Below are positions 39,010 to 64,000 of a stretch of 64,000 bases of DNA, piece after piece. The DNA lies in the NCBI RefSeq assembly GCF_056712565.1, contig NZ_CM160072.1; one strand, given 5' to 3'. Position 1 is the stretch's first letter. Each line of letters begins with the position of its first letter. The position numbers and the translations under genes are program-made. The notes beneath the pieces are model-generated. The model worked only from the letters and a program-made list of their open reading frames with translations. It did no database searches and was not told the origin of the DNA.

Positions 39010-39016
39010 AAAAACC

Positions 39017-42289: not shown

Positions 42290-42862
42290 TGAGCTATAAA
42301 GTAGTCAATAAACAATATTGACCGATCGTCTAATAATCAACGCTGATATCCCAGTGTTTGTCAGAAAACAAGAATTGCTTTTCTTTTCATCAGGTTAAAT
42401 CTATCTTTTTTGATTTATATCAAACCAGATTCGGTCTTCAATTATATAGGCATCAATGTTAGCGGTCCTACAAGATACGCAGTCGATGCTTCAGGGCGTA
42501 CTGATGAAATAAAACAAGTAGGCTGAGATTAGTTGGTCTGCTCATCGCTCACAGCGGACCTTCAGCTTCGTTAGCCAAGCGCTGACATAGTTACCGATGT
42601 AGCGTGTTAATCTGTCGGGAGCATAGCCGAAATCACTTAACCCATTAGACTTCACCTAAAACTGCAAAAATTACCGTCTTTGTCACACTCACCGAGTTTA
42701 ATCAAACTAACACTGTACATAGTGCGAACAAGAGCCAACCAGAAAGACTGTTCAGCATCAACAGTGAAGTTTTTCCCCGCTACTTCCCCGCAATTCTTCC
42801 GCAGTTTTCCCACTAGAGAGTTCGACACATCCCTTGCATACCAACGCTTTGATTCAAATCTC

Positions 42863-43627
42863 GGTAGTGCATCCAATTAGTAGAATATGTGTTTTTCGAT
42901 AAATGCTCCGATCACTTTTTCGTGGATCTCAACTGAGCGTGAGAAGCAGATTGTTTACGAGCCAACCGCTTAATGTGGGTGCGTAGCGTCAGATTATTAC
43001 GCTCAATGCGTTGGGTGAATATTTTGCCGGTCAGATGCTTATTCTTCGGCACCACCCGGCCATAGCTGTCCCAGTCATCGCTGGTGAGCATGCCGATGTT
43101 GAAGGGTGTAAGCAGTGCCAGTAGCTCCCGGCACGTTTGATCGGTTCGGGGACCAAAAGTGTAGGCCAGTACACCGCCTGTTTTGGTGTTGTACGCGTAC
43201 CAGAGCCAGTGTAGCCGGGCTTTACTGCCAACGTAGCTCCATTGCTCATCAAGCTCGCAGATAAGCGCCACATCAGCATGGGCAACAGGCGAAGAAGTTA
43301 TTTGCGTTGGTGCGAGTTTTTTAAAGTCCGGATGATGGTGTTAATACCAATTTTCAGTGTCCTGGCGGTATCGCGAACCCCGGCACCATTAAAGGCCATT
43401 TCAGTGATCATCTCTTTCATACCCGGCTTACGTGCTTGATAAGTATAAGTGAGCTGAAACACACGGTGGCAGTCACGGCAGCGAAATCTGTCACGGCCTT
43501 TAGGGTTCTGACCATGGCGGTAAACCTGAGCTGACTGACAACGGGGACAATGAATATTAACGCTGGCCATGAGATAACCTCAAAAGCCCGTATTATACAT
43601 CAGATTCAACCAATTAGAGGCATCACC
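42863..43627 (-). mobile_element. Diverged IS1-family element (InsA 43298..43570, InsB 42912..43271)
   Basis: InsA-like zinc-finger protein (CPRCQS...CRDCHRVF) and InsB-like ORF; IS1-like terminal repeats GGTGATGCC.../...GGTAGTGCATCC. Confidence 0.8.
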
Positions 43628-43822
43628 CTTTCCTACATTCGTAGGACTTTGATTACATATAGCAAGGGTTAATTCTTATATACATAGAATAAATTAGGAA
43701 TATAATGAATTTTATCGTGACGACCTTATTTATAATTAATTTATATTGTCAGAGAAATTAGTGTCCACAACATGAAGCCTTACAAAGAGATTCTATGATT
43801 TAAAAAAAATAAGAGCCAGCTT

Positions 43823-45292
43823 ATGCATATCGATTCGACTGAAAAAAATAATAAACAAAAGTTGGGCTTGCTTGCGCTAACATCCATTGTCGTGAGCTCG
43901 ATGATCGGCAGCGGCGTTGACGGACTCCCCCAGAATATGGCGGAGAATTCTGCCGTGGGCCCGGTGGCGATAGCATGGATAGTCTGTGGTATCGGCATGT
44001 TTTTCATCTCCAGAACTTTTATCGTGCTGTCAAACATTAGACCTGATCTCCAGTCAGGAGTTTATATGTATGCCCGGGAAGGGTTCGGCCGATTTACGGC
44101 ATTTAACGTCGCCTGGGGCTACTGGCTGATGACTATATTCAGCAACGTCGCCTTTGCCATTATGGTGATGGATACGCTGAATTATTTCTTACCAGGTGAT
44201 TTCAAGGGAGGGAACAATATTCCTTCCGTTATCGGTGCCTCTTTGCTGATATGGGGATTCAACTTTTTAGTCCTCTCCGGTACCCGCATTGCCGGGTCGA
44301 TTAACATCGTCGGCACGCTGGCCAAACTGATCCCGCTGGTGGCCTTTATTATTATTCTCATGCTGTTTATGAAGTACACCACGTTCGCAGATAACGTCTG
44401 GGGGCACAGCGCGAGTAAGGCCAGTCAGGACCTAGGCTCTATTTTCTCACAGGTAACTTCACCGCTTAGCGTGGCACTCTGGAGCTTCATCGGCGTTGAG
44501 GGGGCTGTCGCTCTTTCCGGTCGGGCCAAAAATAAACGCGACGTGGGTAAAGCCACATTCATTGGCTTCGTTGTATCACTGATTATCTGTCTGCTGGTCT
44601 CCATCCTGCCGTTTGGCGTGCTGACTCAACATGAGCTCAGCGCAATTCCAACCCCATCCACCGCCGGTATTCTGAAGATTGTTGTCGGTGAATGGGGGAA
44701 GATTATGATTATCTTGGGGGTGCTGATTTCGGTGCTTACCAGCTGGCTGGCGTGGACCATCATCTGCGCCGAACTGCCTATGGTGGCCGCGCAGAACGGC
44801 ACATTCCCGAAACCGTTCAGCAAAAAAAATGTGAAGGGTTCGGCCTCGGTTTCGCTTTATATAAGCAGTGCGTTTATGCAAATCGTCGTACTTCTGGTCT
44901 ACTTTTCTAACGATGCCTGGCTTGCAATGCTGGCTATCTCTACCCTGACCGTTTTACCTGCGTATTTAATGACCACGGCATACCTGTTTAAACTATGTAT
45001 TAGCGGCGAGTATGCCAGCTATACCACGAATCACAGCCGCAGCGCCGCGCTGGTCAGCAGTATTATCGGCTTTGTATTCTGCCTGTTTATGTTCTACGCC
45101 AGTGAAATCAAATATCTGGCGATGGTTCCGGTGCTGCTTACGCTGGGCGTGCCCCTGTTTATCTGGGCAAGAAAAAAAGACGATCGCGCAGATAAAATAT
45201 TTACGCTACGCGAACTGGCATTTTTTATTTTACTGCTGGTCCTCGACATCATTGTTTTTATTCTACTGCATTATAAAACGATACATTTTTAG
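43823..45292 (+). CDS. APC-superfamily basic amino acid/polyamine antiporter (ArcD/PotE/CadB-like), copy 1
   Basis: 489 aa, 12-13 TM profile, conserved N-terminal block (LGLLALTSIVVSSMIGSGV) shared with copy 2. Confidence 0.75.
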   Translation: MHIDSTEKNNKQKLGLLALTSIVVSSMIGSGVDGLPQNMAENSAVGPVAIAWIVCGIGMFFISRTFIVLSNIRPDLQSGVYMYAREGFGRFTAFNVAWGYWLMTIFSNVAFAIMVMDTLNYFLPGDFKGGNNIPSVIGASLLIWGFNFLVLSGTRIAGSINIVGTLAKLIPLVAFIIILMLFMKYTTFADNVWGHSASKASQDLGSIFSQVTSPLSVALWSFIGVEGAVALSGRAKNKRDVGKATFIGFVVSLIICLLVSILPFGVLTQHELSAIPTPSTAGILKIVVGEWGKIMIILGVLISVLTSWLAWTIICAELPMVAAQNGTFPKPFSKKNVKGSASVSLYISSAFMQIVVLLVYFSNDAWLAMLAISTLTVLPAYLMTTAYLFKLCISGEYASYTTNHSRSAALVSSIIGFVFCLFMFYASEIKYLAMVPVLLTLGVPLFIWARKKDDRADKIFTLRELAFFILLLVLDIIVFILLHYKTIHF

Positions 45293-45396
45293 TCCAGATT
45301 AATTCACAGCAAGTTAAGGTGACGATAATGTCTGTTTCTTGGGCATGACATCCTCACAGTTAAATACTATCTGAACAGTAACCGTGGAGACACCTA

Positions 45397-47766
45397 ATGA
45401 AATTTAACCACAATCTTTTATTTATTTCCTCACAATATCTTGATGGCGACAACCCTTCGCAGCAGGTACTGGAAGAGCTTCAAACCGAACTCGCGGAACG
45501 CGGTTTTAAAATTCATATCACGCACCAGATCTCTGATGGATTAAAAATCATCGAAAAAAGCCCCCAATACAGCGGGATTGGTTTTTACTGGGAGCCAGAC
45601 AATCCGACCTTTGCAGAAGAGCTACAGCACTTTATCAGCATATTCCGCAAAAGAAATGCCACGACGCCGCTGATAATTTTCTCAGAACAGAATATTACCG
45701 ATCGTATCCCACTCGACGTCTTAAAAGAGGTCAGCGAATATGTTTATCTGTTCTCTGAATCCGCAGCCTTCACTGCCAATCGACTGTACTCCTTAGTCCA
45801 CCGCTATGCGGATAAGCTTCTTCCTCCCTACTTTAAAACCCTTAAGGACTTTACCGAGGACGGTGACTATTACTGGGACTGCCCGGGGCATATGGGGGGA
45901 ATGGCCTATCTGAAACATCCTGTTGGCATTGAGTTCATTAACTTCTTTGGCGAAAACATGATGCGCGCTGATATTGGCGTGGCTACCGCGGAGATGGGGG
46001 ATTATCTGATCCACGCCGGACCGCCTAAAAAATCGGAAGAAATTGCGGCCCGACTGTTTGGCTCTGATTGGACCTTCTACGGTGTTTCCGGCTCATCGGG
46101 GTCGAACCGTATTGTGGCCCAGGCTGCGGTTGGCGCAGATGAAATTGCCATTATTGACCGAAATTGCCACAAGTCACTTAATCATGGCCTGACCTTGTCT
46201 CAGGCAAGGCCGGTTTACCTGAAACCTACCCGCAACGCGTGGGGGCTGATTGGGCCTATCCCGACCGGGCGCCTGAAGAAGGCCAGTATTGATGCGCTGG
46301 TGGCAAACAGCCGACTGGCATCTGGTGCGGTCAGCCAGTCCCCGTCCTACGCCGTGGTAACCAACTGCACCTATGATGGCTTCTGTTATAACGTGAACGA
46401 TGTAGTCAGACACCTGGGTGAAAGCGCACCGCGCATCCATTTTGATGAAGCATGGTATGCCTATGCGCGTTTCCATCCGCTATACCAGAGTCGCTATGCA
46501 ATGGACGCGGAGGAAACGCCAAATCGTCCAACCCTATTCGCCGTACAGTCCACCCATAAAATGCTGCCCTCACTCTCCATGGCCTCAATGATTCATGTGA
46601 AGAAAAGCGATCGCGCGCCGCTTAATTTCGATGACTTTAACGATGCCTTTATGATGCACGGCACGACCTCACCCTACTACCCGATCATTGCATCAATTGA
46701 TGTGGCAGTAAGCATGATGGAGGGTGAATCCGGTTATTCGCTTGTGCAGGAGTCAATTGAAGAAGCGATTGCCTTCCGTAAAGCCGTGGTCAGCGTCAAG
46801 CGCCAGCTCCAGGAGCAGGAAGGTGGTGACGCCTGGTTCTTCGATGTGCTTCAGCCAACCGAAGTGCAGGACAGCGATTCTGGGCAGCGATACAGTTTTG
46901 AAGAGGCACCCGTATCGCTGCTGAGCCACAGCGCCGACTGCTGGTCGCTGCGCTCCGGTGAGCGCTGGCACGGTTTTGCCGATGATGATCTGGTCGAAAC
47001 CAACAGTATGCTCGATCCAGTAAAAGTGACCCTGACTTGTCCAGGGATCGGCCCGAAGGGAGAATACCAGAAAAACGGTATTCCGGGATATTTGCTGACC
47101 CGTTTTCTCGATGACCGTCGCATTGAAATTGCCCGTACTGGTGACTACACCGTGCTGATCCTGTTCTCCGTCGGCATCACCAAAGGCAAATGGGGAACTC
47201 TGATTGAAAGCCTGCTGGCCTTTAAAAAGCATTACGACAATGACGATCTGGCCACAGATGCTATCCCGTCGCTGAAAGCGCATTCTCCACACTACGACAC
47301 GCTAACCCTCAAGGAGCTATGTCAGATAATGCATGAAAAAATGGATGAGCTGGAGCTGATGTCGCATATCAACGACGCGGTAAACACCGATCCGGAACCA
47401 GTTATGACCCCGGCAGAAGCCTATCAGAAAGTCGTACGCTACAAAACCGAGCATATCCGGCTGGATGATTTTAGCGGCAGAATTGCCGCCAGCATGCTCG
47501 TCCCATATCCCCCAGGCATTCCTGTACTGATGCCGGGCGAACGGATGCCGCAAGGTAACAAGGGCATTATTGGCTATCTGCGCGCCCTGCAGGAATTCGA
47601 TAAGCAATTCCCAGGTTTTGAACATGAGATCCAGGGCGTTAACGTCGATGAAAACGGGGACTTCTGGGTCAGAGCGATTGTGGAAGAAGAACGCGATGGG
47701 CAGTCGCTACCCGGCCACATAACCTTTAAACGCCAGGTCTCTGGTATTAAAAAGGGCCGCCAGTAG
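45397..47766 (+). CDS. Fold-I PLP-dependent Orn/Lys/Arg decarboxylase (inducible AdiA/SpeF/CadA type), substrate unassigned
   Basis: 789 aa; collinear with AdiA-type decarboxylases (YWDCPGHMGG, DRNCHKS, STHKML PLP-lysine region, PYPPGIPVLMPGE). Confidence 0.8.
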   Translation: MKFNHNLLFISSQYLDGDNPSQQVLEELQTELAERGFKIHITHQISDGLKIIEKSPQYSGIGFYWEPDNPTFAEELQHFISIFRKRNATTPLIIFSEQNITDRIPLDVLKEVSEYVYLFSESAAFTANRLYSLVHRYADKLLPPYFKTLKDFTEDGDYYWDCPGHMGGMAYLKHPVGIEFINFFGENMMRADIGVATAEMGDYLIHAGPPKKSEEIAARLFGSDWTFYGVSGSSGSNRIVAQAAVGADEIAIIDRNCHKSLNHGLTLSQARPVYLKPTRNAWGLIGPIPTGRLKKASIDALVANSRLASGAVSQSPSYAVVTNCTYDGFCYNVNDVVRHLGESAPRIHFDEAWYAYARFHPLYQSRYAMDAEETPNRPTLFAVQSTHKMLPSLSMASMIHVKKSDRAPLNFDDFNDAFMMHGTTSPYYPIIASIDVAVSMMEGESGYSLVQESIEEAIAFRKAVVSVKRQLQEQEGGDAWFFDVLQPTEVQDSDSGQRYSFEEAPVSLLSHSADCWSLRSGERWHGFADDDLVETNSMLDPVKVTLTCPGIGPKGEYQKNGIPGYLLTRFLDDRRIEIARTGDYTVLILFSVGITKGKWGTLIESLLAFKKHYDNDDLATDAIPSLKAHSPHYDTLTLKELCQIMHEKMDELELMSHINDAVNTDPEPVMTPAEAYQKVVRYKTEHIRLDDFSGRIAASMLVPYPPGIPVLMPGERMPQGNKGIIGYLRALQEFDKQFPGFEHEIQGVNVDENGDFWVRAIVEEERDGQSLPGHITFKRQVSGIKKGRQ

Positions 47767-47840
47767 GCGGGGGAAAGAACAATACCGTCGGATCGCCTGC
47801 AATCCGACGGCAATATTATAGAATAGCTGAGGGAAACGTT

Positions 47841-49340
47841 ATGGCAGAGCAATCTTCAGATGTAAAAAATAGTGACAATAGCGCCGGAGGACATAAGCTG
47901 GGGCTTATATCCCTCATCGCTATTGTCGTTAGCTCCATGCTGGGAGGCGGCGTTTTCAGTCTGCCGCAAAACACGGCGGCCTCTTCTGCACTAGGGCCAG
48001 TAATCATTGCATGGATTATTGCCGGGATCGGTATTTATTTTATCGCAAACTCCTTTCGCGTACTATCAGATCTGCGCCCGGACCTTCAGGCTGGAGTGTA
48101 TATGTATGCCCAGGAAGGTTTTGGTTCCTTTATTGGCTTTAACGTCGCCTGGGGCTACTGGCTGATGACCGCATTTGGCAACGTTGCCTTTGCGGTAATT
48201 TTAATGGATGCTTTTAATCAGTTTATGCCGGGGGTTTTTACGGATGGTAATAATCTGAACTCCATTATCTGCGGCTCAGTGCTGATCTGGGGCTATAATT
48301 TTCTTGTTCTGTCCGGGACGAAAGTGGCCGGATTTGTTAACACCTTGGGAACCATCGCCAAGCTCGTCCCTCTGATCCTATTCGTATTACTGCTGGGTGT
48401 GCTGATCGATTATTCGGACCTGTTTAAAAACTTTTGGGGAGAATCACCCGCGATCCTCAGTGGCAACGGAAATGACGCCGCACCAGTATCGCTGCTGTCT
48501 CAGATTCTGGCACCGATGACCGTAACGCTCTGGGCCTTTATTGGCGTCGAGGGAGCGGTTGTTCTATCCGGACGTGCCAAAAATAAACAGGACGTAGGGA
48601 AAGCCACACTGATCGGCTTTCTGCTGGCGCTAATTATTTATATGTTAATGTCCATTCTGCCGTTCGGTGTAATGCCTCAGGCAGAACTAGCGCAGGTCAG
48701 TAACCCCTCTACCGCAGGCGTGCTCGCCCACGTTGTCGGTCAGTGGGGCGACTGGCTGATGAGCGCGGGGCTGATTATTTCTGTTCTGGCCGGCTGGCTT
48801 GCCTGGACCATGCTATGCGCTGAAATACCGATGGTCGCAGGACAGAAAGGCGCTTTCCCGCGCGCGTTTGCCCGAACGAACAGTAAACAGGCGGCCAATG
48901 TGTCACTGTGGGTTAGTAGCTTTGTGATGCAGGCGGCCATGTTACTTGTTTATTTTTCAAATAATGCTTGGACCACCATGTATAATATCAGTGCGCTGAT
49001 GGTTGTTCCGGCCTATATTACCACCACGCTGTATCTGACCAGTATTTGCAGAAACGGAAAATATGATCAGTATGCAAAAAAAGGCCGCAGGCTGGCTTTG
49101 TCCAGCGGTGTTTTAGGCTCGCTATTCTGTCTGTTTATTCTTTACGCCAGCCAGATTGAGTATGTTGCATTAATTCCTATCCTGTTGACCTGTGGTCTGC
49201 CGGTCTTTATCTGGTCAAGAAAAGAAAAAAATGATGGTCAGCCGATATTTACCAAAAAAGAGCTGATTTATCTGATTATGCTGTTGCTGTGCGATATTAT
49301 CGTCGTTGCCCTGTTTATTGGTGGATATTTAAAGGTATAA
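47841..49340 (+). CDS. APC-superfamily antiporter, copy 2 (paralog of 43823..45292)
   Basis: 499 aa, collinear with copy 1 along the whole length. Confidence 0.75.
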   Translation: MAEQSSDVKNSDNSAGGHKLGLISLIAIVVSSMLGGGVFSLPQNTAASSALGPVIIAWIIAGIGIYFIANSFRVLSDLRPDLQAGVYMYAQEGFGSFIGFNVAWGYWLMTAFGNVAFAVILMDAFNQFMPGVFTDGNNLNSIICGSVLIWGYNFLVLSGTKVAGFVNTLGTIAKLVPLILFVLLLGVLIDYSDLFKNFWGESPAILSGNGNDAAPVSLLSQILAPMTVTLWAFIGVEGAVVLSGRAKNKQDVGKATLIGFLLALIIYMLMSILPFGVMPQAELAQVSNPSTAGVLAHVVGQWGDWLMSAGLIISVLAGWLAWTMLCAEIPMVAGQKGAFPRAFARTNSKQAANVSLWVSSFVMQAAMLLVYFSNNAWTTMYNISALMVVPAYITTTLYLTSICRNGKYDQYAKKGRRLALSSGVLGSLFCLFILYASQIEYVALIPILLTCGLPVFIWSRKEKNDGQPIFTKKELIYLIMLLLCDIIVVALFIGGYLKV

Positions 49341-49427
49341 GTCCGAGTTAAATCTTTACTGGGCTAGTAATGCCGCCTTTTAAACAAGAAGGGCGGCAAT
49401 CTTACTGAAATTAGTATGCTGCAAATC

Positions 49428-50195
49428 GGTAATGCTGCCAACTTACTGATTTAGTGTATGATGGTGATTTTAAGGTGCTTGCGTGGCTTCCATTTCCATC
49501 AGATGTCCTTCCTGCTCCGCTACTGAAGGCGTGGTGCGTAACGGCAAAAGCACTGCCGGACATCAGCGCTATCTCTGCTCTCATTGCCGTAAAACATGGC
49601 AACTGCAGTTCACTTACACCGCTTCTCAACCCGGTACGCACCAGAAAATCATTGATATGGCCATGAATGGCGTTGGATGCCGGGCAACTGCCCGCATTAT
49701 GGGCGTTGGCCTCAACACGATTTTACGTCACTTAAAAAACTCAGGCCGCAGTCGGTAACCTCGCGCATACAGCCGGGCAGTGACGTCATCGTCTGCGCGG
49801 AAATGGGCGAACAGTGGGGCTATGTCGGGGCTAAATCGCGCCAGCGCTGGCTGTTTTACGCGTATGACAGGCTCCGGAAGACGGTTGTTGCGCACGTATT
49901 CGGTGAACGCACTATGGCGACGCTGGGGCGTCTTATGAGCCTGCTGTCACCCTTTGACGTGGTGATATGGATGACGGATGGCTGGCCGCTGTATGAATCC
50001 CGCCTGAAGGGAAAGCTGCACGTAATCAGCAAGCGATATACGCAGCGAATTGAGCGGCATAACCTGAATCTGAGGCAGCACCTGGCACGGCTGGGACGGA
50101 AGTCGCTGTCGTTCTCAAAATCGGTGGAGCTGCATGACAAAGTCATCGGGCATTATCTGAACATAAAACACTATCAATAAGTTGGAGTCATTACC
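49428..50195 (+). mobile_element. IS1, complete 768 bp copy (insA 49483..49758, insB 49677..50180)
   Basis: Canonical InsA ([21 protein letters not shown]...) and InsB; terminal repeats GGTAATGCTGCCAACTTACTGAT... and ...GTTGGAGTCATTACC. Confidence 0.9.
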
Positions 50196-50646
50196 GACAT
50201 TGTCAAGATGAACAGCATGCATTGTAACAGTCTGCAGTTTATGTTCTCCGTGGATAATTATTCTTATTTCATGGTGATTTTTGTTATATTTTAAAATGCA
50301 TATCTCACCATTTAGTTTTTTATATCACAAAAACATAGTGATGCAATCATACACACCTGCCTCTATCGTACAGAGAAAACGGGCAATTATTTGTATTATT
50401 CCTTCATAACGACTTCAGTATACAGGATGACCGCAACCACGCTCCTTCTCCTGCCCGGGCGAAGTGCCTGGTTCAGACAATTACATTAACTGGCTGAAAT
50501 TTTCGACGCGGTACAAGCCTCCCTGCTTTGAAAGGTGGCCTGGCGCTGCAATTTTTTACTTTTGTTTTTGTATCCGGAAAAACACATCTGCAAGAATCAT
50601 TATTCTCTTGCCTGAAGCTATCCAGCATCCTCAGATATTTCGCACT

Positions 50647-52925: not shown

Positions 52926-53399
52926 CAATCTGCTGACAGACGAAGATAATGAACCCGTTATGGTTTTTAACGGAGAGAGGAATGTACTGGCAGACAGTCT
53001 GAAACCACAGCCTCTGATTCTTCCGGTCAAGGGAAAATAAGCGTAATGTTCATCACCAGATTATGTACGATGAGTTTTCCACTGTTTATAGCAATTATCT
53101 TGCTAATAACCAGACAGGAGTAACCAGACCAACCGAAAACACCGGGAAGGTGATTACCCGCTGGCAGAGGAAATCCGGTTTTTTTTGATGTCAGCCATAA
53201 CGTGTTTGACAATAAAGCATCATGAAAGGGTGTTAATGAGTCCATGGGATAATTCATAAAAATAATTTACTGTGTTATCCTTTTCAAAAGAAATATTCAG
53301 AAGATAACCCCTGGCTGACAACCAGGGGAAGGGAGCATTAACAGTGTTATTATTGGTGAATAAATTATTACTTGTGTGCAGGATACACTAATGCAATAT

Positions 53400-54473
53400 C
53401 TACTGATACTGTATGCCAGTATGTTTCATGCCTGCCGCTGAAAACGGCAATATCCAGGGCCAGACATATTCACCATTCATATTTCTGCATTTCTGTACAA
53501 TTTTCTCAGAAAGCGTCTCATCAATTCTTTCACGCAACTTCTCCTGCTGTCTTAAAATACTTTCGCATATTTCGAAATCATCTTCCTGCATCAGCATTTC
53601 GGCGCATTTAATGATTTCTGCCCGTTCATGCAGCACAGAGGAATGATTATAGAGCCAGTTTACAAACAGCAATGCTTCCGGATATTGCCCCCATAACGGG
53701 TGGTATGTGGCATAATAATCTTCGGCAGTATCCGGACCGCCTGAAAAGTTATGCCATACAGCAAGTGGAAATGGATGCAGATTTCCGCACAGTATTTCTG
53801 CGATGTAAGTATTTGCCGCAAAGCCGCGACGAAATGCAGTTGCAGCTTTTACCAGTTCCCCATTAAGAAAATGCAGAAGGCCGAGTTCATACCAGTAAGG
53901 TGAAAATTCATCTGCATGTTCCTGCAGTATATGGCGTGCCTGTTCATGAGCGCCAGTGCGTAACAGTTCCGGTCCCAGTAGCCAGCGTGCACCATGATTA
54001 TCTTCGGGATTGTAATCCAGTATTTTTTCAATGAGCATGATGGCATCCTGATGACGCCGTAAATGTGCATTTGCCAGGATTGCCGCATAGAGGGCACGAA
54101 GAAAAGGTCGGTTGTCAGGATGTATCCAGATGATTCTGCCACTGAAACCTTCAGGGATAAGACGATTGCCAACTGCCAGCCCTTTAAGGGCAGCATTCAG
54201 CGCCTTACGCGGGGCATTCTGCTCCAGAAATACGTATGCCAAGTGAGCGTGTACATCAATAAAGTCATTCTCCTGTCGGGCAAGGCGCCTGAGTTTGTTG
54301 ATGTAACTTGTTTCGCTGATTTCATCCGCATCGTATGCATCAATCAGTTCTTCAAACTCATCCAGCAACGAGCCAAACCAGGTTTCCGGAAATATGAAAC
54401 AGCCCTGGTTATCGTTCACTTCAAAGCGTAATTTGCCAGTCATATTCTGAACCTGTAAAAAAGGATGGACCAT
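53400..54473 (-). CDS. Hypothetical island protein, 357 aa
   Basis: ORF only; helical repeat-like composition, no catalytic motif recognised. Confidence 0.4.
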   Translation of the reverse strand: MVHPFLQVQNMTGKLRFEVNDNQGCFIFPETWFGSLLDEFEELIDAYDADEISETSYINKLRRLARQENDFIDVHAHLAYVFLEQNAPRKALNAALKGLAVGNRLIPEGFSGRIIWIHPDNRPFLRALYAAILANAHLRRHQDAIMLIEKILDYNPEDNHGARWLLGPELLRTGAHEQARHILQEHADEFSPYWYELGLLHFLNGELVKAATAFRRGFAANTYIAEILCGNLHPFPLAVWHNFSGGPDTAEDYYATYHPLWGQYPEALLFVNWLYNHSSVLHERAEIIKCAEMLMQEDDFEICESILRQQEKLRERIDETLSEKIVQKCRNMNGEYVWPWILPFSAAGMKHTGIQYQ

Positions 54474-54698
54474 AACCTGCAGGCTATAAAAATTGTGATG
54501 CCTGGCATCGGTGTCCTTTTATTGTCCGGGATTAACGTTGCCCATGATAATACAGTGAATTCTGTTCTGTGGTAAGACGTTGAGTTATTGAATGAGAACC
54601 TCAGCCTGGCTGATGGTTCCGCCGGCATAAAAAAGAAATTGATTGAGGCGGGTGCTCTTCCCCTTAAGAGGAAGAGCATGTGTGTAAATGGCGTTCAG

Positions 54699-55964
54699 TC
54701 ACCTTTTCAGTGGATTGTTAACTTTTGCATATTCAAACGGACTGATACACTCCTCCCTGTTTGCATCCAGAAAATCTGCCCACCATTGCAGCATAAGCCG
54801 ACGTTCTTCCAGATGTTCTGCTTTATGAATATACGCGGCACGTACTCCGTTGCGCTCCTGATGACTCATCTGACGTTCAACCGCATCTCTTGACCATAAG
54901 CCGGATTCAATCAATGCACTGCACGCCATCGCCCGGAATCCATGGCCACAGACTTCCTTGGTTGTGTCATACCCCATCACTCTGAGGGCCTTATTTACGG
55001 TATTTTCACTGATTGGTTTACGTGGGTCGTGTGCTCCCGTAAAGATCAGACCATTTTCACCTGCCCATGTCTGAAGTTCTGCCAGTATGGCTACAGCCTG
55101 TTGGCTGAGTGGCACAAGATGTGGTGTTCGCATCTTGGAGCCCCGGTATGAAAATTTTACGCCTGGCAGAGGTTCGCGTTCGGCTGGAATAGTCCACATG
55201 GCATTGTCAATATCAATTTCAGACCAGCGGGCATATCTGAGTTCACTGGAACGAATAAAAACCAGTAAATTCAGCATAACTGCCAGTCGGGTGACAGGCT
55301 GGCCTTTATAACCGTCAATACGCGACAGAAGTTCAGGCAGGCGTGAAAGATCCAGAGCAGGGCGATGCTGGCGTTTTACCGTGGTCAATGCACCAGCCAT
55401 ATCCAGAGCCGGGTTATATCTGATGATGCCAGACTGTACGGCATAACGCATTACAGCAGATATTCTTTGCTGCAGACGACTGGCGATTTCATAAATTTGT
55501 TTAACTTCTGCAGCACGAACAGGGATAAGCAGATCCGGGGTACTGAGTGTTGTGATATCCCGGTTGCCGATAAAGGGGAAAACGTGAGTCTCGAGGCTTT
55601 TGAGTACTTTATCGCTGTGTGATTGTGCCCATTGTTTATTACTGGCATGCCAGCGTCGTGCAATATGTTCAAAAGAGAGCTGTAAATCAGGGACTACTTT
55701 TTTAGCTCTTTTCTGTTCGCAAGGGTCAACCCCCTCCGAAATCAGTTTTCGGGCCTCATCCCGTTTTGTACGAGCTTCGGAGAGAGAAACTTCCGGATAC
55801 ACACCAAGTGCCAGGGTTTTCTCCTTACCCAGAATACGATAACGGAGACGCCAGTAACGGGAACCATTAGGATGTACCAGCAGGAACATGCCAGCCCCGT
55901 CAGTGAGTTTATAAGCCTTGTCAGTGGGCTTTGCAGCCCGGATTTTTGCGTCAGTCAGTGCCAT
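54699..55964 (-). CDS. int: P4-type tyrosine integrase (site-specific recombinase), adjacent to tRNA-Phe
   Basis: 421 aa; N-terminal MALTDAKIRAAKPTDKAYKLTDGAGMFLLVHPNGSRYWRLRYR arm-binding signature and C-terminal catalytic region (HGFRAMACS... with R/H/Y pattern). Confidence 0.85.
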   Translation of the reverse strand: MALTDAKIRAAKPTDKAYKLTDGAGMFLLVHPNGSRYWRLRYRILGKEKTLALGVYPEVSLSEARTKRDEARKLISEGVDPCEQKRAKKVVPDLQLSFEHIARRWHASNKQWAQSHSDKVLKSLETHVFPFIGNRDITTLSTPDLLIPVRAAEVKQIYEIASRLQQRISAVMRYAVQSGIIRYNPALDMAGALTTVKRQHRPALDLSRLPELLSRIDGYKGQPVTRLAVMLNLLVFIRSSELRYARWSEIDIDNAMWTIPAEREPLPGVKFSYRGSKMRTPHLVPLSQQAVAILAELQTWAGENGLIFTGAHDPRKPISENTVNKALRVMGYDTTKEVCGHGFRAMACSALIESGLWSRDAVERQMSHQERNGVRAAYIHKAEHLEERRLMLQWWADFLDANREECISPFEYAKVNNPLKR

Positions 55965-56161
55965 AGTTCAGCCTTCTGAATGCGTTAAAGAGGGTACAAA
56001 TTCTGTCGAACTGGGGTATACCCGCAATTATACCCACACAATGGGGTTGATGTGGGGGGAATCTGGTTGAGTTCGGTAGAATTGATTTGGAGGCAGAACG
56101 CTTAAATTGTGGCGTTCTGAAACGAAAAACGGACCTCCGTGGAGGTCCGTTGATATGAACT

Positions 56162-56237
56162 TGGTGCCCGGACTCGGAATCGAACCAAGGACACGGGGAT
56201 TTTCAATCCCCTGCTCTACCGACTGAGCTATCCGGGC
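56162..56237 (-). tRNA. pheU: tRNA-Phe (anticodon GAA)
   Basis: Reverse complement reads GCCCGGATAGCTCAGTCGGTAGAGCAGGGGATTGAAAATCCCCGTGTCCTTGGTTCGATTCCGAGTCCGGGCACCA; pheU rather than pheV inferred from the yjdC-dsbD-cutA-dcuA-aspA flank. Confidence 0.95.
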
Positions 56238-56343
56238 AACGGGGCGCATTAAACCGTAATCTGCACATCTCGTCAACCTAATTTCAGTAAAAGCGATTCA
56301 ACTGCTTAAGATTGCGGCAAATCGCTTCTTTTCTGTGTTTCTG

Positions 56344-56943
56344 TCAGGTCAGTGCACCACCCTGACGGCAGCGGGCGAAGCGCAGGATATCTTCCGCCAG
56401 CCGATGTGCGGTGTCGACATCCGCCTGGCTACGATTCACCAGCATTCGGCTTAAACAGCCTTCCAGCACCAGTTCCATCTGCTTTGCTACCATCGCCGGA
56501 TCGTCAACTTCCAGCGTGGTTAACAGTTCGTGGGTGAAATCGTAGGCCGCGCTTTTTTGCTGATCGGCCAGTTGATGAATAGGGTGGCCAGGATCGGGGT
56601 AAAACGTACAGGCAGCGATAAACAGACAGCCCGGATAGCGGTTGTTTTTAACGCACTCCGATAACGCCTGATAACGTGCCAGCAACTTTTGTTCGGCGGT
56701 TTGCGTTTCGTCCAGCATCAGCTGACGACGCCAGACATCTATCTGTTGGCTAAGATAACGCAGCGCATCGTAGAGGATTGCCTCTTTGTCTGGCCAGAAG
56801 CGGCGTAGCTCGTCCAGTGGATAATCCACACGTTCAGCAACCATCTCCAGCGTGGTGTTGGCAATCCCTTGTAATTCTAATAATTTCAGGGCTTCTCCCA
56901 GTACATCTTCACGTTGCACGCTATTTTCCTCCGTCTTTCCCAC
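56344..56943 (-). CDS. yjdC: TetR-family regulator YjdC (true start may be an internal GTG)
   Basis: Recognised core protein; HTH block [28 protein letters not shown]. Confidence 0.8.
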
Positions 56944-56955
56944 TGCAAGTGTCGT

Positions 56956-58653
56956 TCACGGTTGGCGATCGCGCAAATGTGCGCTGAAGGTTTCAGCATC
57001 CATAAAGCCCGTGACGCGTGCTTGTGGATGCTCCTGGCCTTGTCCGTCAAAAAAGAGAATTGTCGGTAGGCCAAGGACATTAAGATGCTTTAACAGCGCC
57101 ACATCTTGTGCGTCGTTGGCAGTGACGTTGGCCTGAAGTAAGACCGTATCTGCTAACGCTTTTTGCACCTGCGGGTCGCTGAAGGTGTATTTCTCAAACT
57201 CTTTACAGGCGACGCACCAGTCGGCATAGAGATCTAACATCACTGGTTTGCCTTTGGCTTCAACGAGCGCCTGATTTAACTCATCTACTGTTTTGATTTG
57301 TGTAAAGTTGAGATGCGTCTGAGTTTGCGCGGTATGTGTTTCACCAAATGCCCAATCCTGAAGTGGGCGCACGCTAACCAATGCCGCTGCCAGCAGGATT
57401 ATTTGCACCACGCGCATCCAGCCGCGTTTGGCCTGTAGGCTGGTGATAAAGGCCCAGCCAAAGAATGCGACACCAAGCGCCGACCACAAGCGTAATCCCC
57501 ATATATCACCAATCACTCGCTCCAGCAGGAAGACCGGCAGTGCGAGGATCACAAAACCAAACGCGGTTTTGACTTGTTCCATCCACGGGCCGCTTTTCGG
57601 CAGCAAGCGGTTACCAAAGACGGTAATTAGCATCAGCGGCAGGCCCATGCCCAGCGCATAAAGATAAAGCGTGCCGCCGCCCAGCCACATGTTCCCGCTT
57701 TGGGCGATATACAGCAGAATCGCGCTAAGCGGTGCAGTGGTGCATGGTGAACAGATCAGTCCGGCAATCGCCCCCATAATAAACACACCGCCAGGTGAGC
57801 CGCCCTGTTGGCGATTGCTCATCAGCGTGAGACGTGTTTGCAGCGAAGAGGGGAGTTGCAGAGTAAACAAGCCAAACATTGACATCGCCAGCAAGGTAAA
57901 GACGATGGCGAGGCCAATGAGCACGTATGGGTGCTGTAGCGCCGCCTGGAACTGTAACCCTGCGGCGGCAACCACCAGACCCAGCGCCGTGTAAGTCAGC
58001 GCCATCCCCTGCACATAAATAAAGGTCAGCAACAATGCTCTGGCAGTGGAAAGCCGCTGTTTACCGCCCAGCACGATGCCAGAAATCAGTGGGTACATTG
58101 GCAGCACGCATGGCGTAAAGGCGATACCAATACCGATCAACAACGCCCAGAGCGCGGAAAAGGGCAATTGCGCGGTGGGCTGCTCTTGCTGCGGAACAGA
58201 CACAGGCTGTGACGCTTCGTTGTTAGCGACCACTTCGCTTAACGGAACGGTTTTGGTTTCTGGCGGATAACAGAAACCGGCATCAGCACAGCCCTGGTAG
58301 GTGACAGTTAACGTTGCTCCCGCACTCGCCTGGTTGATGGTTACGGGAAGCGTCAGCCGATCGCGGTAAATCTCGCTTTTGCCGTAAAACTCATCTTCAT
58401 GCCAGACGCCTTGCGGCAGCTGCACGTCAGCAATTTTCGCGTGTTCCGGCGTAATGCGGATCTGTTTACGGTAGAGGTAGTAACCGTCTTTGATCTGCCA
58501 GGTCAGATTCAGATCATGTTGATTTTGCTGAAAATCAAAAGCAAAGGCTTGATCCGCGGGGACAAATTGTGAACGTCCCGGCGCGTCGAATAATCCGGCA
58601 AAAACGGAAGTGCTGCAAAGTAGCAGGATCAGCGTAAAGATGCGTTGAGCCAT
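56956..58653 (-). CDS. dsbD: Thiol:disulfide interchange protein DsbD
   Basis: [19 protein letters not shown] signal then multi-TM core and C-terminal thioredoxin-like domain with CVAC; ORF-track start at 58734 is an upstream extension. Confidence 0.9.
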
Positions 58654-58967
58654 GAGAGGTAATCTGTGTCTCCGTGTGTAACAGGTAAAACCAGAAGTTC
58701 CGGGGTTTGATATGGATGATGAGACTTCAGGCATTCCAGCAGCGCCTGCTGGTGAGATACGGTAGTTTTTAAAATCATCTGCACTTCGTATTCTTGCTCC
58801 AGCTTACCTTCCCAGTAATAGAGAGAGGTAGCGCCGGGGATCAAGGTCGCGCAGGCCGCCAGTTTTTCCGCCAGCACTTTGGCGGCTAAATCCTGGGCTG
58901 TCGCTTCATCCGGTGCCGTACATAGCACCACGACAGACGTGGTATTCGAACTTTTTTCATCAAGCAT
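58629..58967 (-). CDS. cutA: Divalent-cation tolerance protein CutA
   Basis: [54 protein letters not shown] recognised as CutA. Confidence 0.9.
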
Positions 58968-59082
58968 AAACACCTCGCAAGAACAGATGGAACCGCAAGA
59001 GAGAGGTCACTATACAACGGACGGGGAAAGGATGTTAGTCGGCGGGAAAGAAAGCGGGGCGTGAACGCCCCGCGATGGGTCA

Positions 59083-60384
59083 TTACAGCATGAAGCTACC
59101 CAGCACGAAGCCGAAGCAAACGGCCAGGGCAACGCCCAGAGTACCCGGGATGAAGAACGGATGGTTGAAGACGAATTTACCGATACGGGTAGTACCCGTG
59201 TCATCCATCTGTACCGCAGCAACCAGTGTCGGGTAGGTCGGCAGAATGAACAGACCAGACACCGCAGCGAAAGAAGCAACAGCGGTCAGCGGAGAAACGT
59301 TCAGTGCCAGAGCCATCGGCATCAGTGCTTTTGCGGTTGCAGCCTGAGAGTACAGCAGAGCAGAAGCAAAGAAGAAGATGACGGCCAGCAGCCACGGATG
59401 ACCCTGAATCACTTCACCAGCGGTATCTTTGATCCAGTCGATGTTGTTGGAAACGAAAGTATCGCCCAGCCACGCAACACCCAGGATACAAATACAGGCG
59501 CTCATACCTGCTTTGAAGGTGCTGGAGTTGAGAATGTTGTCGGTATCGACTTTACAGATAACGGTGGTCAGAGTTGCAACGCTGAGCATGATGATCAGGA
59601 TTGCGTTGGTGGTGTTCATCAGCGGTTTTTCAACCAGACCCATGCTTGGGCTGTTGATGATTGCATAGATAACCACGCCAACTACGCCCAGCAGGAACAG
59701 CCAGACGGACGTTTTTGCACCGGATTTGATTTCAATCTGCTTTTCACCGCGCAGTTCAACCAGGCCCTCTTCCAGACGCTTGCGATAAATCGGATCGTCA
59801 GAGAGTTTGGAGTTGAACAGCATAGTGACCAGGAAGGACATCACCAGAACCGCCAGCAGGGTGGACGGGATGACCACGGAGAGCAGATGGAGGTAGCTGA
59901 TGCCATGACCTTCCATTACGGAAGACATGTAAACCACTGCCGCTGAGATTGGCGATGCGGTGATCGCAATCTGCGCGGATACCACTGCAGTAGACAGCGG
60001 ACGGCAAGGTTTAACGCCTTGTTCCTTCGCAACTTCAGCGATAACTGGCAGTGTCGCCAGAGAGATGTTGCCAGTACCAGCAAAGATTGTCAGGAAATAG
60101 GTCACGATCGGTGCGAGGATCGTGATGTATTTCGGGTTACGGCGCAGCAGCTTTTCTGTCTGATGAACCAGATAGTCCAGACCGCCAGCAACCTGCATGG
60201 CAGAAATAGCGGCGATAACCGCCATGATAATGGAAATGACATCGAACGGGATGTTACCGGGTTTAACGCCAATAGCGGCAAGAACCAGCACCCCCAATCC
60301 GCCTGCAAAACCAATACCTATTCCCCCCAATCTGGCGCCCAAGAAGATCGCCAGCAAAACTATGATGAGTTCTACAACTAGCAT
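59083..60384 (-). CDS. dcuA: Anaerobic C4-dicarboxylate transporter DcuA
   Basis: 433 aa polytopic protein recognised as DcuA. Confidence 0.9.
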   Translation of the reverse strand: MLVVELIIVLLAIFLGARLGGIGIGFAGGLGVLVLAAIGVKPGNIPFDVISIIMAVIAAISAMQVAGGLDYLVHQTEKLLRRNPKYITILAPIVTYFLTIFAGTGNISLATLPVIAEVAKEQGVKPCRPLSTAVVSAQIAITASPISAAVVYMSSVMEGHGISYLHLLSVVIPSTLLAVLVMSFLVTMLFNSKLSDDPIYRKRLEEGLVELRGEKQIEIKSGAKTSVWLFLLGVVGVVIYAIINSPSMGLVEKPLMNTTNAILIIMLSVATLTTVICKVDTDNILNSSTFKAGMSACICILGVAWLGDTFVSNNIDWIKDTAGEVIQGHPWLLAVIFFFASALLYSQAATAKALMPMALALNVSPLTAVASFAAVSGLFILPTYPTLVAAVQMDDTGTTRIGKFVFNHPFFIPGTLGVALAVCFGFVLGSFML

Positions 60385-60501
60385 ATTAGCCTTCCTTGTT
60401 TTTTAACAAGTTGATATTAAATCGTTATTTTTAAGTTACTACTCACAAGAAAAAAGGCACGCCATCTGACGTGCCTTCTTTATTTGTACTACCCTGTACG
60501 A

Positions 60502-61938
60502 TTACTGTTCGCTTTCATCAGTATAGCGTTTTGCTTTGTAAGCCGGGTGCATCAGATTCTGTACGGAGAAAATATCGTCAAGTTCCGCTTCAGTCAACAG
60601 ACCGCGTTCCAGAACGACTTCACGTACACTCTTACCGGTTTCGGCACAGATTTTACCCACGATGTCACCGTTGTGGTGACCGATGAACGGGTTCAGGTAA
60701 GTAACGATACCGATAGAGTTGTAAACGTAACCTTCGCACACTTCTTTGTTAGCAGTGATGCCGTTAATGCATTTTTCCAGCAGGTTGTAGCAAGCGTTGG
60801 TCAGAATGTGAACGGATTCGAACATGGCCTGGCCAATGACTGGCTCCATAACGTTCAACTGCAGCTGACCTGCTTCTGCTGCCATGGTAACAGTGGTGTC
60901 GTTACCGATGACTTTGAAGCATACCTGGTTAACCACTTCCGGAACAACCGGGTTTACTTTAGCTGGCATGATGGAAGAGCCTGCCTGCAGTTCCGGCAGG
61001 TTGATCTCGTTCAGGCCGGCACGTGGACCAGAAGAGAGCAAGCGCAGGTCGTTACAGATTTTGGACATCTTCACAGCCAGGCGTTTCAGCGCGCCGTGAA
61101 CCATAACATAAGCGCCGCAGTCGGAGGTCGCTTCGATCAGGTCTTCAGCCGGTACGCATGGGAAGCCAGTGACTTCAGCCAGTTTTTTCACTGCCAGCGG
61201 AGAGTACTCTTTCGGCGTGTTCAGACCAGTACCGATTGCTGTTGCGCCAAGGTTAACTTCCAGCAGCAGTTCAGCGGTACGTTGGATATTTTTCACTTCT
61301 TCTTTCAGCAAGATGCTGAAGGCGCGGAATTCCTGACCGAGGGTCATCGGTACTGCGTCCTGCAGCTGGGTACGACCCATTTTCAGGATGTCCTGGAATT
61401 CGACAGCTTTACGTTCAAAGCCTTCACGCAGTTGGTTAATCGCATCTACCAGTTTAATCAGGGAAGAGTAAACTGCGATACGGAAACCGGTCGGGTAGGC
61501 GTCGTTAGTGGACTGACATTTGTTAACATGGTCGTTCGGGTTCAGGTACTGATATTCACCTTTCTGGTGACCCATCAGTTCCAGACCGATATTGGCCAGC
61601 ACTTCGTTGGTGTTCATGTTTACGGAAGTACCTGCGCCGCCCTGGTAGACGTCTACCGGGAACTGATCCATGCATTTTCCGTTGTTCAGGACTTCATCAC
61701 ATGCGGCAATGATGGCATTCGCTACACTTTTAGGAATGGTTTGCAGCTCTTTGTTTGCCATAGCTGCGGCTTTTTTAACCATTACCATACCGCGAACAAA
61801 TTCAGGAATATCACTGATTTTGTTGTTGCTGATATAGAAGTTTTCAATCGCTCTCAGAGTGTGAACACCATAGTAGGCATCAGCTGGAACTTCCCTGGTA
61901 CCCAACAGATCTTCTTCGATACGAATGTTGTTTGACAT
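60502..61938 (-). CDS. aspA: Aspartate ammonia-lyase AspA
   Basis: [30 protein letters not shown]... and fumarase/aspartase signature [15 protein letters not shown]; true start is the internal ATG, not the ORF-track start at 61983. Confidence 0.9.
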
Positions 61939-62274
61939 GTGAACCTTCTTTTTCAAGCTGCCAATGATTTGCTTTAAACACACAGAATATATGTGGTTTC
62001 GAATGTTTTTCGGCCGACGATTATCCCCTGCATCGACCGAATACCCGAGATCATATGCTGCTTGAGGATTTCTACCGTAACCTGGATCACTTTAAGTGTC
62101 GGTTTTTACCCCTTAATTATTAATTTGTGAAATGGATCACCGCTTTGGGATTACTACCAAAAATAGTTGCGCAAACATCTTGAAATTTTGCTAATGACCA
62201 CAATATAAGCTAAACGCGATTCGCAACCCATTCAGGTAGCCGGGTTTAACCGGCTGCTATTACAGGAGAAACCT

Positions 62275-62751
62275 TTGCGCTGGTTACCTTTTATTGCCAT
62301 TTTCCTTTATGTCTATATTGAGATTTCAATCTTTATTCAGGTTGCTCATGTATTGGGGGTATTGCTGACCCTCGTGCTGGTTATATTCACGTCAGTTATC
62401 GGTATGTCACTGGTACGCAACCAGGGCTTTAAGAATTTCGTGCTGATGCAGCAAAAAATGGCGGCGGGTGAAAACCCAGCGGCGGAGATGATTAAAAGTG
62501 TTTCGCTGATCATTGCCGGTTTGCTGCTTTTATTACCGGGCTTTTTCACCGACTTCCTCGGTCTTCTGCTTTTATTGCCGCCGGTGCAAAAGCATCTGAC
62601 AGTGAAGTTGATGCCTCATCTGCGTTTTTCCCGTATGCCAGGCGGCGGTTTTAGCGCCGGGACCGGTAGCGGTAATACTTTTGATGGTGAGTACCAGCGA
62701 AAGGATGATGACCGCGACCGCCTTGATCATAAAGACGATCGCCAGGATTAA
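62275..62751 (+). CDS. fxsA: FxsA (F exclusion of phage T7 suppressor) inner-membrane protein
   Basis: MRWLPFIAIFLYVYIEISIFIQVAHVLGVLLTLVLVIF... with acidic tail, recognised as FxsA. Confidence 0.85.
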   Translation: MRWLPFIAIFLYVYIEISIFIQVAHVLGVLLTLVLVIFTSVIGMSLVRNQGFKNFVLMQQKMAAGENPAAEMIKSVSLIIAGLLLLLPGFFTDFLGLLLLLPPVQKHLTVKLMPHLRFSRMPGGGFSAGTGSGNTFDGEYQRKDDDRDRLDHKDDRQD

Positions 62752-62766
62752 TGTCGAAACGCCGGA

Positions 62767-64000
62767 TTATGTGGTTATGCCATTTCCCGGCGTTTTTCGT
62801 TTTGGCAGAAACAGCCATAACCCCGCCAGCATGATCAGCGCGTAGAGACTTTTCCAGCCGACCATTGCCAGTAACAGAACGCATAATAGCCCGCCAACCA
62901 CTGCCAGTAGTCGATAACGTCCTTGCAATAATTTACAGCCTGCCAGCATGCATAACAGATAAATCATAATAAAGATGCCATTGGCATAAATAATAAGAGC
63001 GTCCAGATTGATCTCTAAAGCATGAATCACCAACGTGCTCACCACGCAGCAGCCGAGCACCGCATTGAGGGCATTATTCGGAATATGGCGAGAAGAGAGG
63101 CGTGCCAGGTAGTGGTCAGGATTATGTTGCGCCTGCGACCAGACCAGGCGGGCGAAGCTCTGTATATAAATGTTGAGACTGGCAAAGCAGGCCAGATAGC
63201 CAATTACGCAGGCAATCCATAACGCTCCTACACCGAACAACTGCACTACAATTTTGGGAAGCGATGCTGCCGCCGCCATTTGTTCACCATAGGCGTCGAA
63301 GTGTAAGACGACTACCGTACAGCCCCAATAGACTAATCCTGCCAGCAGCAGGCCAATCATCAAAGCACGAGGAAAATCACGCTCTGGATTTTTAAATTCC
63401 GAGGCAAGATGGGCAAATGCTTCCAGACCGACAAAACACCAGAACATCACTGATAACGCAGCGAATAACCCGGTAAGTTCGATATTTCCTGGCGCAGGGA
63501 AGGGGATATTCGCAGGTTTGATATCGCCCGCCCACCAGATAGCGACAATCAGTGCGACGATAAGTCCGGCAATAACTGTTTGTAGATTAGCACTGGAACT
63601 GGCACCGCGAGTACCGATATACCACACCAGCGCCAGCGTACCGAGTTCTGCCAACAACAGTTGCTCGCTATGCCAGCCAAACATTGCCTGGCCGAATCCG
63701 GCAGCAATTTGTAGCGCGGCAGGCAAACCCACGGGAATGACCGATAAAAACAACCAGCCGGTGACTCGCTCAAGCCGCGAACCAAACGCCATACCGACGA
63801 AGTGTGCGACGCCGCCTGCGCTGGGATAGTGGCGACCCAGAATCGCAAACACAATCGCAATCGGGAACACTAAGATAATCAAAACGGGCCACGCCCACAG
63901 GCTGTTATTGCCTGCTACTAGCGCAGCTAACGCAGGAACGGCAAACACGCCAGTGCCTAATAATGACGTCGATAGCAGGCCGATGCCCTGGGCCAGCCCC
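62767..64000 (-). CDS. yjeH: L-methionine/branched-chain amino acid exporter YjeH, 5' end beyond the window
   Basis: APC-type transporter recognised as YjeH; the ORF remains open to the window edge. Confidence 0.8.
   Translation of the reverse strand, partial: GLAQGIGLLSTSLLGTGVFAVPALAALVAGNNSLWAWPVLIILVFPIAIVFAILGRHYPSAGGVAHFVGMAFGSRLERVTGWLFLSVIPVGLPAALQIAAGFGQAMFGWHSEQLLLAELGTLALVWYIGTRGASSSANLQTVIAGLIVALIVAIWWAGDIKPANIPFPAPGNIELTGLFAALSVMFWCFVGLEAFAHLASEFKNPERDFPRALMIGLLLAGLVYWGCTVVVLHFDAYGEQMAAAASLPKIVVQLFGVGALWIACVIGYLACFASLNIYIQSFARLVWSQAQHNPDHYLARLSSRHIPNNALNAVLGCCVVSTLVIHALEINLDALIIYANGIFIMIYLLCMLAGCKLLQGRYRLLAVVGGLLCVLLLAMVGWKSLYALIMLAGLWLFLPKRKTPGNGITT

Follow-up and report, generated by a model that had tools for sequence, protein, structure and literature searches.

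The element closest to the locus described here is PAI-S88-pheU, which the ExPEC PAI table of Desvaux et al. 2020 lists as a 64-kb element of 48% GC at 4621378..4684940 (PMC7545054). The catalogue entry names 'PapX' as the only content and gives no att anatomy (PMC7545054). The GI-pheV/intP4 islands carry a P4-type integrase beside an identical tRNA-Phe gene and have a modular cargo, and an attR reading TTCGATTCCGAGTCCGG-CACCA has been published for many of them, from several phylogroups (PMC11537424). Phage P4 (11.6 kb) likewise targets a tRNA 3′ end, that of leuX, and its excisionase gene and int flank attP on opposite sides, so that integration places them toward opposite ends of the prophage. 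In CFT073, the selC island is located at tRNA-Sec, between yicL and yicJ. The grp locus and the GrpP/GrpQ regulator encoded by it have been studied in CFT073, and GrpP/GrpQ is reported to promote the pathogenicity of this strain (PMC11724981).

Here, we analysed a stretch of 64,000 nucleotides from contig NZ_CM160072.1 (hereafter, the window), in which an initial annotation had proposed an island junction at a tRNA-Phe gene. We find that a 63.4-kb genomic island is site-specifically integrated in the 3′ end of pheU and that the junction seen here constitutes its attL end, a reading to which we assign a probability of about 0.9. The element is already known, as it is the catalogued PAI-S88-pheU, and the ends that we obtain agree with those listed. 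The initial observation holds, but the element is an ordinary and typical representative of such islands.

The pheU junction and its integrase

ARAGORN identifies tRNA-Phe(GAA) as the sole tRNA of the whole window, and the same tRNA is the only match in an Rfam scan of the junction region (Table 1). The conserved core begins directly on the far side of the tRNA, as had been noted from the sequence, and runs from dicD (yjdC) to yjeH in the K-12 pheU gene order. At the junction and at its left end, the window matches complete genomes of ST95-type extraintestinal and avian pathogenic E. coli with 100% identity, among them ATCC 11775, APEC O1, S88 and MS7163. The window differs from ATCC 11775 by 2 SNPs over the first 28 kb, while the island is 99.99% identical to that of S88, from which the window strain is distinguished by a few SNPs and the length of one tandem repeat (VNTR). 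The GC content is 50.9% in the core part of the window, as opposed to 47.3% in its island part and 47.8% over the entire island. Within the island, local GC forms a mosaic ranging from 35 to 56%, and the GC3 of int is 0.43, against 0.55-0.61 in the neighbouring core genes.

Table 1 Features of the pheU island and its junction. Coordinates are window positions except where marked L001, the ATCC 11775 stretch.
Feature	Coordinates	Strand	Evidence or remarks
Cargo block	1959..50198		99.2-99.9% identical to CFT073 selC island
Inovirus Gp2/YfjJ-like protein, remnant of phage-like backbone	3025..3756	+	RefSeq annotation; weak PHROG replication-initiation matches
AlpA/Vis-family small HTH protein, candidate recombination directionality factor	4747..4980	+	P4 Vis; PHROG
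Backbone segment beside int: small ORF and 357-aa weak-TPR protein	52999..54473	-	90% copy beside selC-type integrase in CFT073
pheU/pheV-specific integrase/att module	54461..56160		blastn: without DNA homology to CFT073 selC island
int, intact P4-type tyrosine integrase, 421 aa	54699..55964	-	Pfam; alignment with P4 Int
Candidate arm-type Int-binding repeats T[GA]TACCCNC	55990-55998 (inverted); 56017-56025 and 56029-56037 (direct)		
Two further T[GA]TACCCNC repeats, tandem	L001 12840-12860		53-73 bp inside far end of island
Intrinsic terminator hairpin	56128..56151	-	Terminator scan; 11 nt after tRNA
attL core, 24-nt direct repeat TTGGTGCCCGGACTCGGAATCGAA	56161..56184		Last 23 nt of tRNA plus 1 nt
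pheU, tRNA-Phe(GAA)	56162..56237	-	ARAGORN; Rfam RF00005, 68.3 bits; intact, identical to K-12 pheU in alignments
Conserved chromosome: dicD (yjdC), dsbD, cutA, dcuA, aspA, fxsA, yjeH	56238..64000		Order as in K-12 and S88

On the island side, the distance between the start codon of int and the 3′ end of the tRNA, previously estimated at ~200 bp, is exactly 197 nt (55965-56161). The assignment of the encoded protein as a P4-type integrase also holds. It contains three P4-type Pfam domains, namely an N-terminal arm-DNA-binding domain (PF13356, 2e-29), a central SAM-like domain (PF22022, 1.3e-26) and a C-terminal catalytic domain (PF00589, 8e-17), and sequence matches in the PDB are to the N-terminal and central domains of CP4-like integrase. 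Alignment with phage P4 Int gives 225 identities over 410 positions (55%, E=1e-173) and reveals that the catalytic residues are kept, with R238, H341, R344, H368 and Y376 aligning with P4 R244, H347, R350, H374 and Y382. With 247 bits, Int does not reach the curated threshold of 434 for NCBIfam PRK09692 and is therefore P4-type of a different subfamily, a relative and not a member of PRK09692; this shortfall leaves the P4-type assignment unaffected. Int is 97% identical to the Int adjoining pheV in S88, and the arms between tRNA and int are almost the same. A scan of the int-tRNA spacer for a sigma-70-like promoter of int yielded none at the threshold used.

The distal repeat and the empty site

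At up to 3 mismatches, the tRNA 3′ end is not repeated within the window, whether intact or with one base deleted. This agrees with the absence of a direct repeat reported in the initial annotation, which had placed the distal boundary outside the window; we locate it 7,213 bp to the left. The repeat predicted there, TTCGATTCCGAGTCCGGGCACCA, is indeed present 7.2 kb past the left edge, in a form that differs by a single-base deletion. In the left flank of ATCC 11775, ungapped searches with the tRNA 3′ end returned no match because of this 1-nt deletion, and the repeat was found by reading the sequence together with a regular-expression search. This attR, TTGGTGCC-GGACTCGGAATCGAA, reproduces the final 23 nt of the tRNA except for a single deleted C and shares 23 of 24 nt with attL. 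It occupies window coordinates -7235..-7213 (12765-12787 of L001) and was also found in S88 and APEC O1. The island therefore spans L001 12788 to window position 56160, a size of 63,373 bp. In ATCC 11775, cadC, the left neighbour of pheU in K-12, ends 7.9 kb to the left of window position 1.

In K-12, the site consists of cadC, the pseudogene yjdQ, pheU and dicD, and the gap between cadC and pheU is only 616 bp. A 1.3-kb query across this site finds it uninterrupted (cadC-yjdQ′-pheU-dicD) in 3,692 of 5,426 complete E. coli genomes (68%), in keeping with the claim that everything to the left of the tRNA is accessory. In the occupied genomes, the match breaks at query position 875, a point 23 nt inside the 3′ end of the tRNA. 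The empty site of K-12 can be aligned to both junctions, to the distal one as far as this same nucleotide (96.7%) and to the proximal one rightwards from a point 133 bp past the tRNA on its downstream side (95.9%), which identifies the tRNA as the attachment site, as first proposed. A three-way alignment of the junctions reveals that the distal copy departs from the tRNA sequence after ...GGAATCGAA, and that the alleles are those of K-12 in the distal spacer and, at 4 SNPs, those of the island in the proximal spacer. This distribution of alleles is the one that site-specific integration would predict. A search for an island-free strain with the gene order of the window, an arrangement that would mark the region as ancestral, gave none.

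We note that an 'integrase' fragment, yjdQ, lies between cadC and attR. It comprises ~55 C-terminal codons with 66-69% DNA identity to the island int, and the spacer on its side is 90-92% identical to the tRNA-int spacer of the island. The fragment is derived from a related element of P4 type that occupied this att site. Since yjdQ is also present at empty sites, it is a fossil of an older pheU occupant and lies outside the island; in carriers, it is found beyond attR.

Attachment-site anatomy and the crossover

The single-base deletion is found in all six distal junctions sampled (ATCC 11775, S88, APEC O1, SCU-306, S1-JOR-02-A and the pheV-site island of AREA_492), even though the distal module of one of them is of a different allele. 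The intact 22-mer, on the other hand, is confined to real tRNA genes. We considered lineage-specific decay of attR as the origin of the deletion and rejected it, since all six junctions, among them the pheV-site island, share the deletion with the published GI-pheV attR. A genome-wide search with 80 bp of the distal junction as query did not distinguish repeats with the deletion from those without it, as empty-site matches swamp the identity bands.

Because the same deletion occurs in every sampled distal junction at pheU and pheV, and in view of the flanking SNPs, the alignments suggest that the deletion is carried by the attP of the island (GG) and that the crossover is bounded by the deletion on one side and by the closest SNP of the flank on the other. 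Strand exchange would then be restricted to window 56161-56168, or roughly the final 8 nt of the tRNA. This tighter limit is set by a SNP at 56160 that is missing from the S88 pheV island and may be a later mutation; consequently, a conservative range for the exchange is 56153-56168. In an alternative view, excision could be reduced by the one nucleotide in which attL and attR differ; according to evidence cited in PMC11537424, deletion is less frequent with single mismatches.

Joining both ends of the island reconstructs the attP that an excised circle would carry. Similar to P4, this sequence has one inverted and two direct repeats on the int side and two tandem repeats past the core, the latter pair being 53 bp from the core as compared to 54 bp in P4. 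The repeats are related to the annotated arm repeats of P4 but not identical in sequence (T[GA]TACCCNC in the island, T[AG]TGCCCCC in P4), and the core differs as well. Five of the seven T[GA]TACCCNC matches in ~84 kb fall inside the reconstructed attP, a count that has to be read with the post hoc definition of the motif in mind. We regard the repeats as candidate arm sites, in a supporting role only, given that the motif was defined after the sites had been seen. The terminator hairpin that follows the tRNA carries island-type SNPs and is thus supplied by the island side of the junction.

Cargo and chimeric structure

Most of the cargo is metabolic or anti-phage. It includes the grp glycyl-radical propanediol microcompartment operon, QatABCD, a type I CBASS, an Orn/Lys/Arg decarboxylase with two antiporters, and IS remnants; IS1, IS3 and group II intron remnants are present in the island. 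The central ~52 kb of the island is 99% identical to the CFT073 selC island, in which the distal yee module, grp, Qat, CBASS, the decarboxylase and antiporters, and the stretch encoding the hypothetical and TPR proteins occur in the same order. The backbone flanks, in contrast, are only ~90% (89-90%) identical, and the integrase modules are unrelated. On the int side, the hypothetical and TPR stretch (52999-54460) is 90% identical to CFT073 and blastn homology stops at 54460, while the distal yee-type module is 89-98% identical. Searches of Pfam, NCBIfam, PADLOC and PHROGs gave no informative match for either the TPR protein beside int or a 407-aa ORF. CFT073 further differs in carrying a GH31/MFS/LacI module as opposed to the IS1-flanked PapX-like MarR gene of the present island, and another ORF where the window has 323-1959. 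The possibility that this match represents a pheU island of CFT073 was rejected, as the flanks place the block at selC, where it adjoins the other integrase.

The contexts of seven grp carriers were sampled. In AREA_492 the grp cargo adjoins kps, which is the pheV site, whereas in SCU-306 and S1-JOR-02-A it is located at pheU; for SB0258h1, NDM_12_14482 and 1435, the stretch at hand does not allow a tRNA site to be assigned. Over the 5,426 genomes, the modules differ in distribution, with 298 genomes for int and the TPR gene at pheU, 141 for the int-proximal 25 kb, 456 for grp and 181 for the left 8 kb.

A cargo that is 99% identical, flanks that are ~90% identical and integrase modules that are unrelated suggest an exchange of cargo between related island backbones. 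Judged from these identities, the cargo seems to move between them by homologous or IS1-mediated recombination, and copies of IS1 are found at the right edge of the block shared with CFT073, at 49.4-50.2 kb. Such an exchange fits the modular picture of GI-pheV (PMC11537424). In addition to modular cargo, the pheU island has in common with GI-pheV the near-identical Int and tRNA-int arm described above for S88, the 23-nt attR with the same single-base deletion and a yee-type distal module. It differs in its position at the paralogous pheU, between cadC and dicD, and in its own cargo of grp, Qat, CBASS and decarboxylase.

In a rival reading, homologous recombination of the flanks together with the island, or an exchange of cargo between resident islands, produced the present arrangement in this lineage, with int as an inactive passenger. 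The contrast between the central block (99.2-99.9%) and its 89-90% flanks beside unrelated integrase modules, the same grp cargo at pheV in AREA_492, the IS1 copies at the block's edge and the uneven distribution of the modules over genomes are all consistent with this explanation, which we consider a serious but lesser possibility. However, both junctions are precise, att-type and at the tRNA 3′ end, with alleles as expected from an Int crossover, and the integrase is full length and retains the catalytic Arg-His-Arg-His-Tyr residues. Recombination of this kind explains how the cargo arrived and not how the backbone was inserted; it therefore complements integration at pheU and does not replace it. 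In the same vein, ST95 strains may have gained the island and its flanks by homologous recombination and not through integration in that lineage.

A single island at pheU

The AlpA- and YfjJ-like genes at 3-5 kb had been taken as the signature of a second recombination module, suggestive of either tandem islands or a composite. The AlpA-like protein is 36% identical to P4 Vis (E=6e-10) and matches the PHROG 'excisionase and transcriptional regulator' (6e-10), and its match to TIGR01764 'excise' is under the cut-off. Together with an Int that is 55% identical and a tRNA 3′ end as target, this Vis/AlpA-family protein adds to the resemblance with phage P4. Since the excisionase gene and int of P4 are also located on opposite sides of attP, the distal position of the AlpA-like gene is no evidence for a second element. 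Contrary to P4, the island lacks genes for P4 replication, capsid size and helper exploitation, with the exception of the Gp2-like remnant, and measures 63 kb compared to 11.6 kb.

Two islands in tandem at pheU would account for the AlpA-like and Gp2/YfjJ-like genes ~50 kb away from int, for the GC mosaic and for an integrase remnant past the distal repeat, but we consider this arrangement very improbable. The island contains no internal repeat of the tRNA 3′ end, intact or deleted, at up to 3 mismatches, and no second integrase gene is annotated inside it in ATCC 11775 or S88, so that there is no tandem array. The integrase remnant beside cadC was evaluated as the trace of a tandem partner and rejected, because it is the ancestral pseudogene yjdQ, which is present in the same form at the empty K-12 site. 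The tandem part of the earlier suggestion is accordingly abandoned, the AlpA-like protein being a P4 Vis homologue that belongs to the same backbone. The composite part stands for a different reason, namely a cargo that is 99% shared with selC- and pheV-site islands with other integrase modules.

That the 56 kb are ancestral to E. coli and were deleted from K-12 and other genomes is the least probable explanation. Precise Int-mediated excision would likewise leave a clean attB, and the yjdQ relic in all E. coli shows that pheU had an occupant long ago. However, the site is empty in 68% of genomes, the remainder carry different islands at the same nucleotide, and only 298 of 5,426 have the present int beside pheU. 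The GC and GC3 of the island deviate from the core, other lineages have its cargo at other tRNA sites, and the patchy distribution of near-identical copies refutes ancestry.

Discussion

In sum, the locus combines a tRNA 3′ end with an adjacent int, direct repeats, an empty site, deviant GC and mobility genes including IS, as expected of a tRNA-integrated genomic island. In the favoured explanation, the P4-type Int encoded 197 bp from the tRNA recombined the island attP with the last ~23 nt of tRNA-Phe. The tRNA remained intact, with the island providing the final few nucleotides and the terminator, and a 23-nt copy of the tRNA end (attR) lies at the far end of the island, beside cadC. Excision, if it still occurs, would require Int and probably the Vis/AlpA-like protein encoded at 4747-4980, the putative directionality factor. 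The present cargo was probably not brought in its entirety by the pheU integrase, and appears to have been swapped between related island backbones via homologous or IS1-mediated recombination.

Taken together, the junction and cargo comparisons lead us to a broader proposal, to which we give even odds. The deleted attR would be attP-borne and would pin the exchange catalysed by pheU/pheV integrases to the last ~8 nt of tRNA-Phe, and the ~52-kb cargo block would move between selC-, pheV- and pheU-type backbones through recombination within conserved flanks, such that the integrase defines the address of an island and not the history of its cargo.

These results leave the current understanding of tRNA-linked islands unchanged. 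The additions are modest and consist of the exact att anatomy, the suggestion of an attP-borne deletion and the cargo common to selC- and pheV-site islands. Their value lies mainly in annotation, as they define the exact ends of a 63-kb island in the ST95 ExPEC/APEC lineage. The integrase/att system of the pheU island is that of the pheV islands in the same genomes, and cross-talk between both is therefore plausible. The cargo that this island has in common with islands at other tRNA sites includes two anti-phage systems as well as a locus for a propanediol microcompartment that has been linked to UPEC pathogenicity.

Variable segments and mobile elements of the island cargo

Comparison of the pheU island with the near-identical cargo carried at selC by the uropathogenic strain CFT073 reveals 97-99% homology with a sole gap, at 323-1959, where the CFT073 selC island has a different ORF. 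In the window this stretch holds a 407-aa ORF that has no match in Pfam, NCBIfam, PADLOC or PHROGs, and it has the appearance of a variable gene that has been exchanged, with the GTPase and Gp2-like genes on either side. On its right, the block common to CFT073 is delimited by the first IS1 copy of a pair that encloses an IS3 fragment together with a PapX-like MarR regulator (50647-51198).

Features of the island and the pheU locus (window coordinates unless stated)
Feature	Coordinates	Strand	Remarks
407-aa ORF	349-1572	+	35% GC DNA; in stretch 323-1959
Group II intron	12709-14406	-	Rfam D1-D4 and D5/6 matches
POTRA-domain and VasL-domain gene fragments	30695-31515	+	Annotated pseudogenes
9-bp tandem repeat TTGCTGAGG	32736-33102	+	Perfect, x40.8; within ORF 31754-33190
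QatABCD	33322-37881	+	Full-length PADLOC matches
Type I CBASS pair	38434-40345	-	Oligonucleotide cyclase and 2TM/SLATT effector
Additional Orn/Lys/Arg-family decarboxylase with two antiporters	43823-49340	+	
IS1 pair	49428-50195 and 52158-52925		Mutually inverted
Small ORF and 357-aa protein with weak TPR signals	52999-54473	-	Adjoin integrase
yjdQ, K-12 (L002, empty site)	4192-4354		Beyond window
yjdQ, ATCC 11775 (L001)	12409-12568		Beyond window

In the glycyl-radical propanediol microcompartment (grp) operon, grpO and grpP are separated by the group II intron, whose reverse transcriptase/maturase ORF is broken into two (12992-13513 and 13541-14080); the intron is in the same state in CFT073, its maturase ORF likewise split. 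The POTRA/VasL fragments, which are type VI secretion-related, are located between grpA and the repeat-bearing gene. This gene, immediately 5' of qatA, encodes a 478-aa protein in which the TTGCTGAGG repeat is translated as (AEV)n. The repeat's copy number is strain-variable (+162 bp in S88, an ST95-type strain with the same island), the CFT073 counterpart of the ORF is shorter, and the protein gives a weak PADLOC match to PD-Lambda-4_B (5e-6).

We note that the island holds two complete, adjoining anti-phage systems, QatABCD and type I CBASS. Basic amino acid/polyamine antiporters flank the island decarboxylase, one per side, and IS1 copies bound the whole module. The chromosomal cadCBA operon adjoins the far end of the island, and the decarboxylase/antiporter module constitutes a second acid-resistance-type module, located ~64 kb from cadCBA.

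Integrase-adjacent genes and earlier use of pheU

The small ORF and its TPR partner are a conserved integrase-adjacent backbone pair; in CFT073, ~90% identical copies of both adjoin an unrelated, selC-type integrase.

Downstream of pheU, yjdQ is a P4-type integrase relic with an internal deletion that retains its own tRNA-integrase spacer. The relic is found whether a genome's site is empty or occupied, which shows that a related element used pheU before E. coli diversified.
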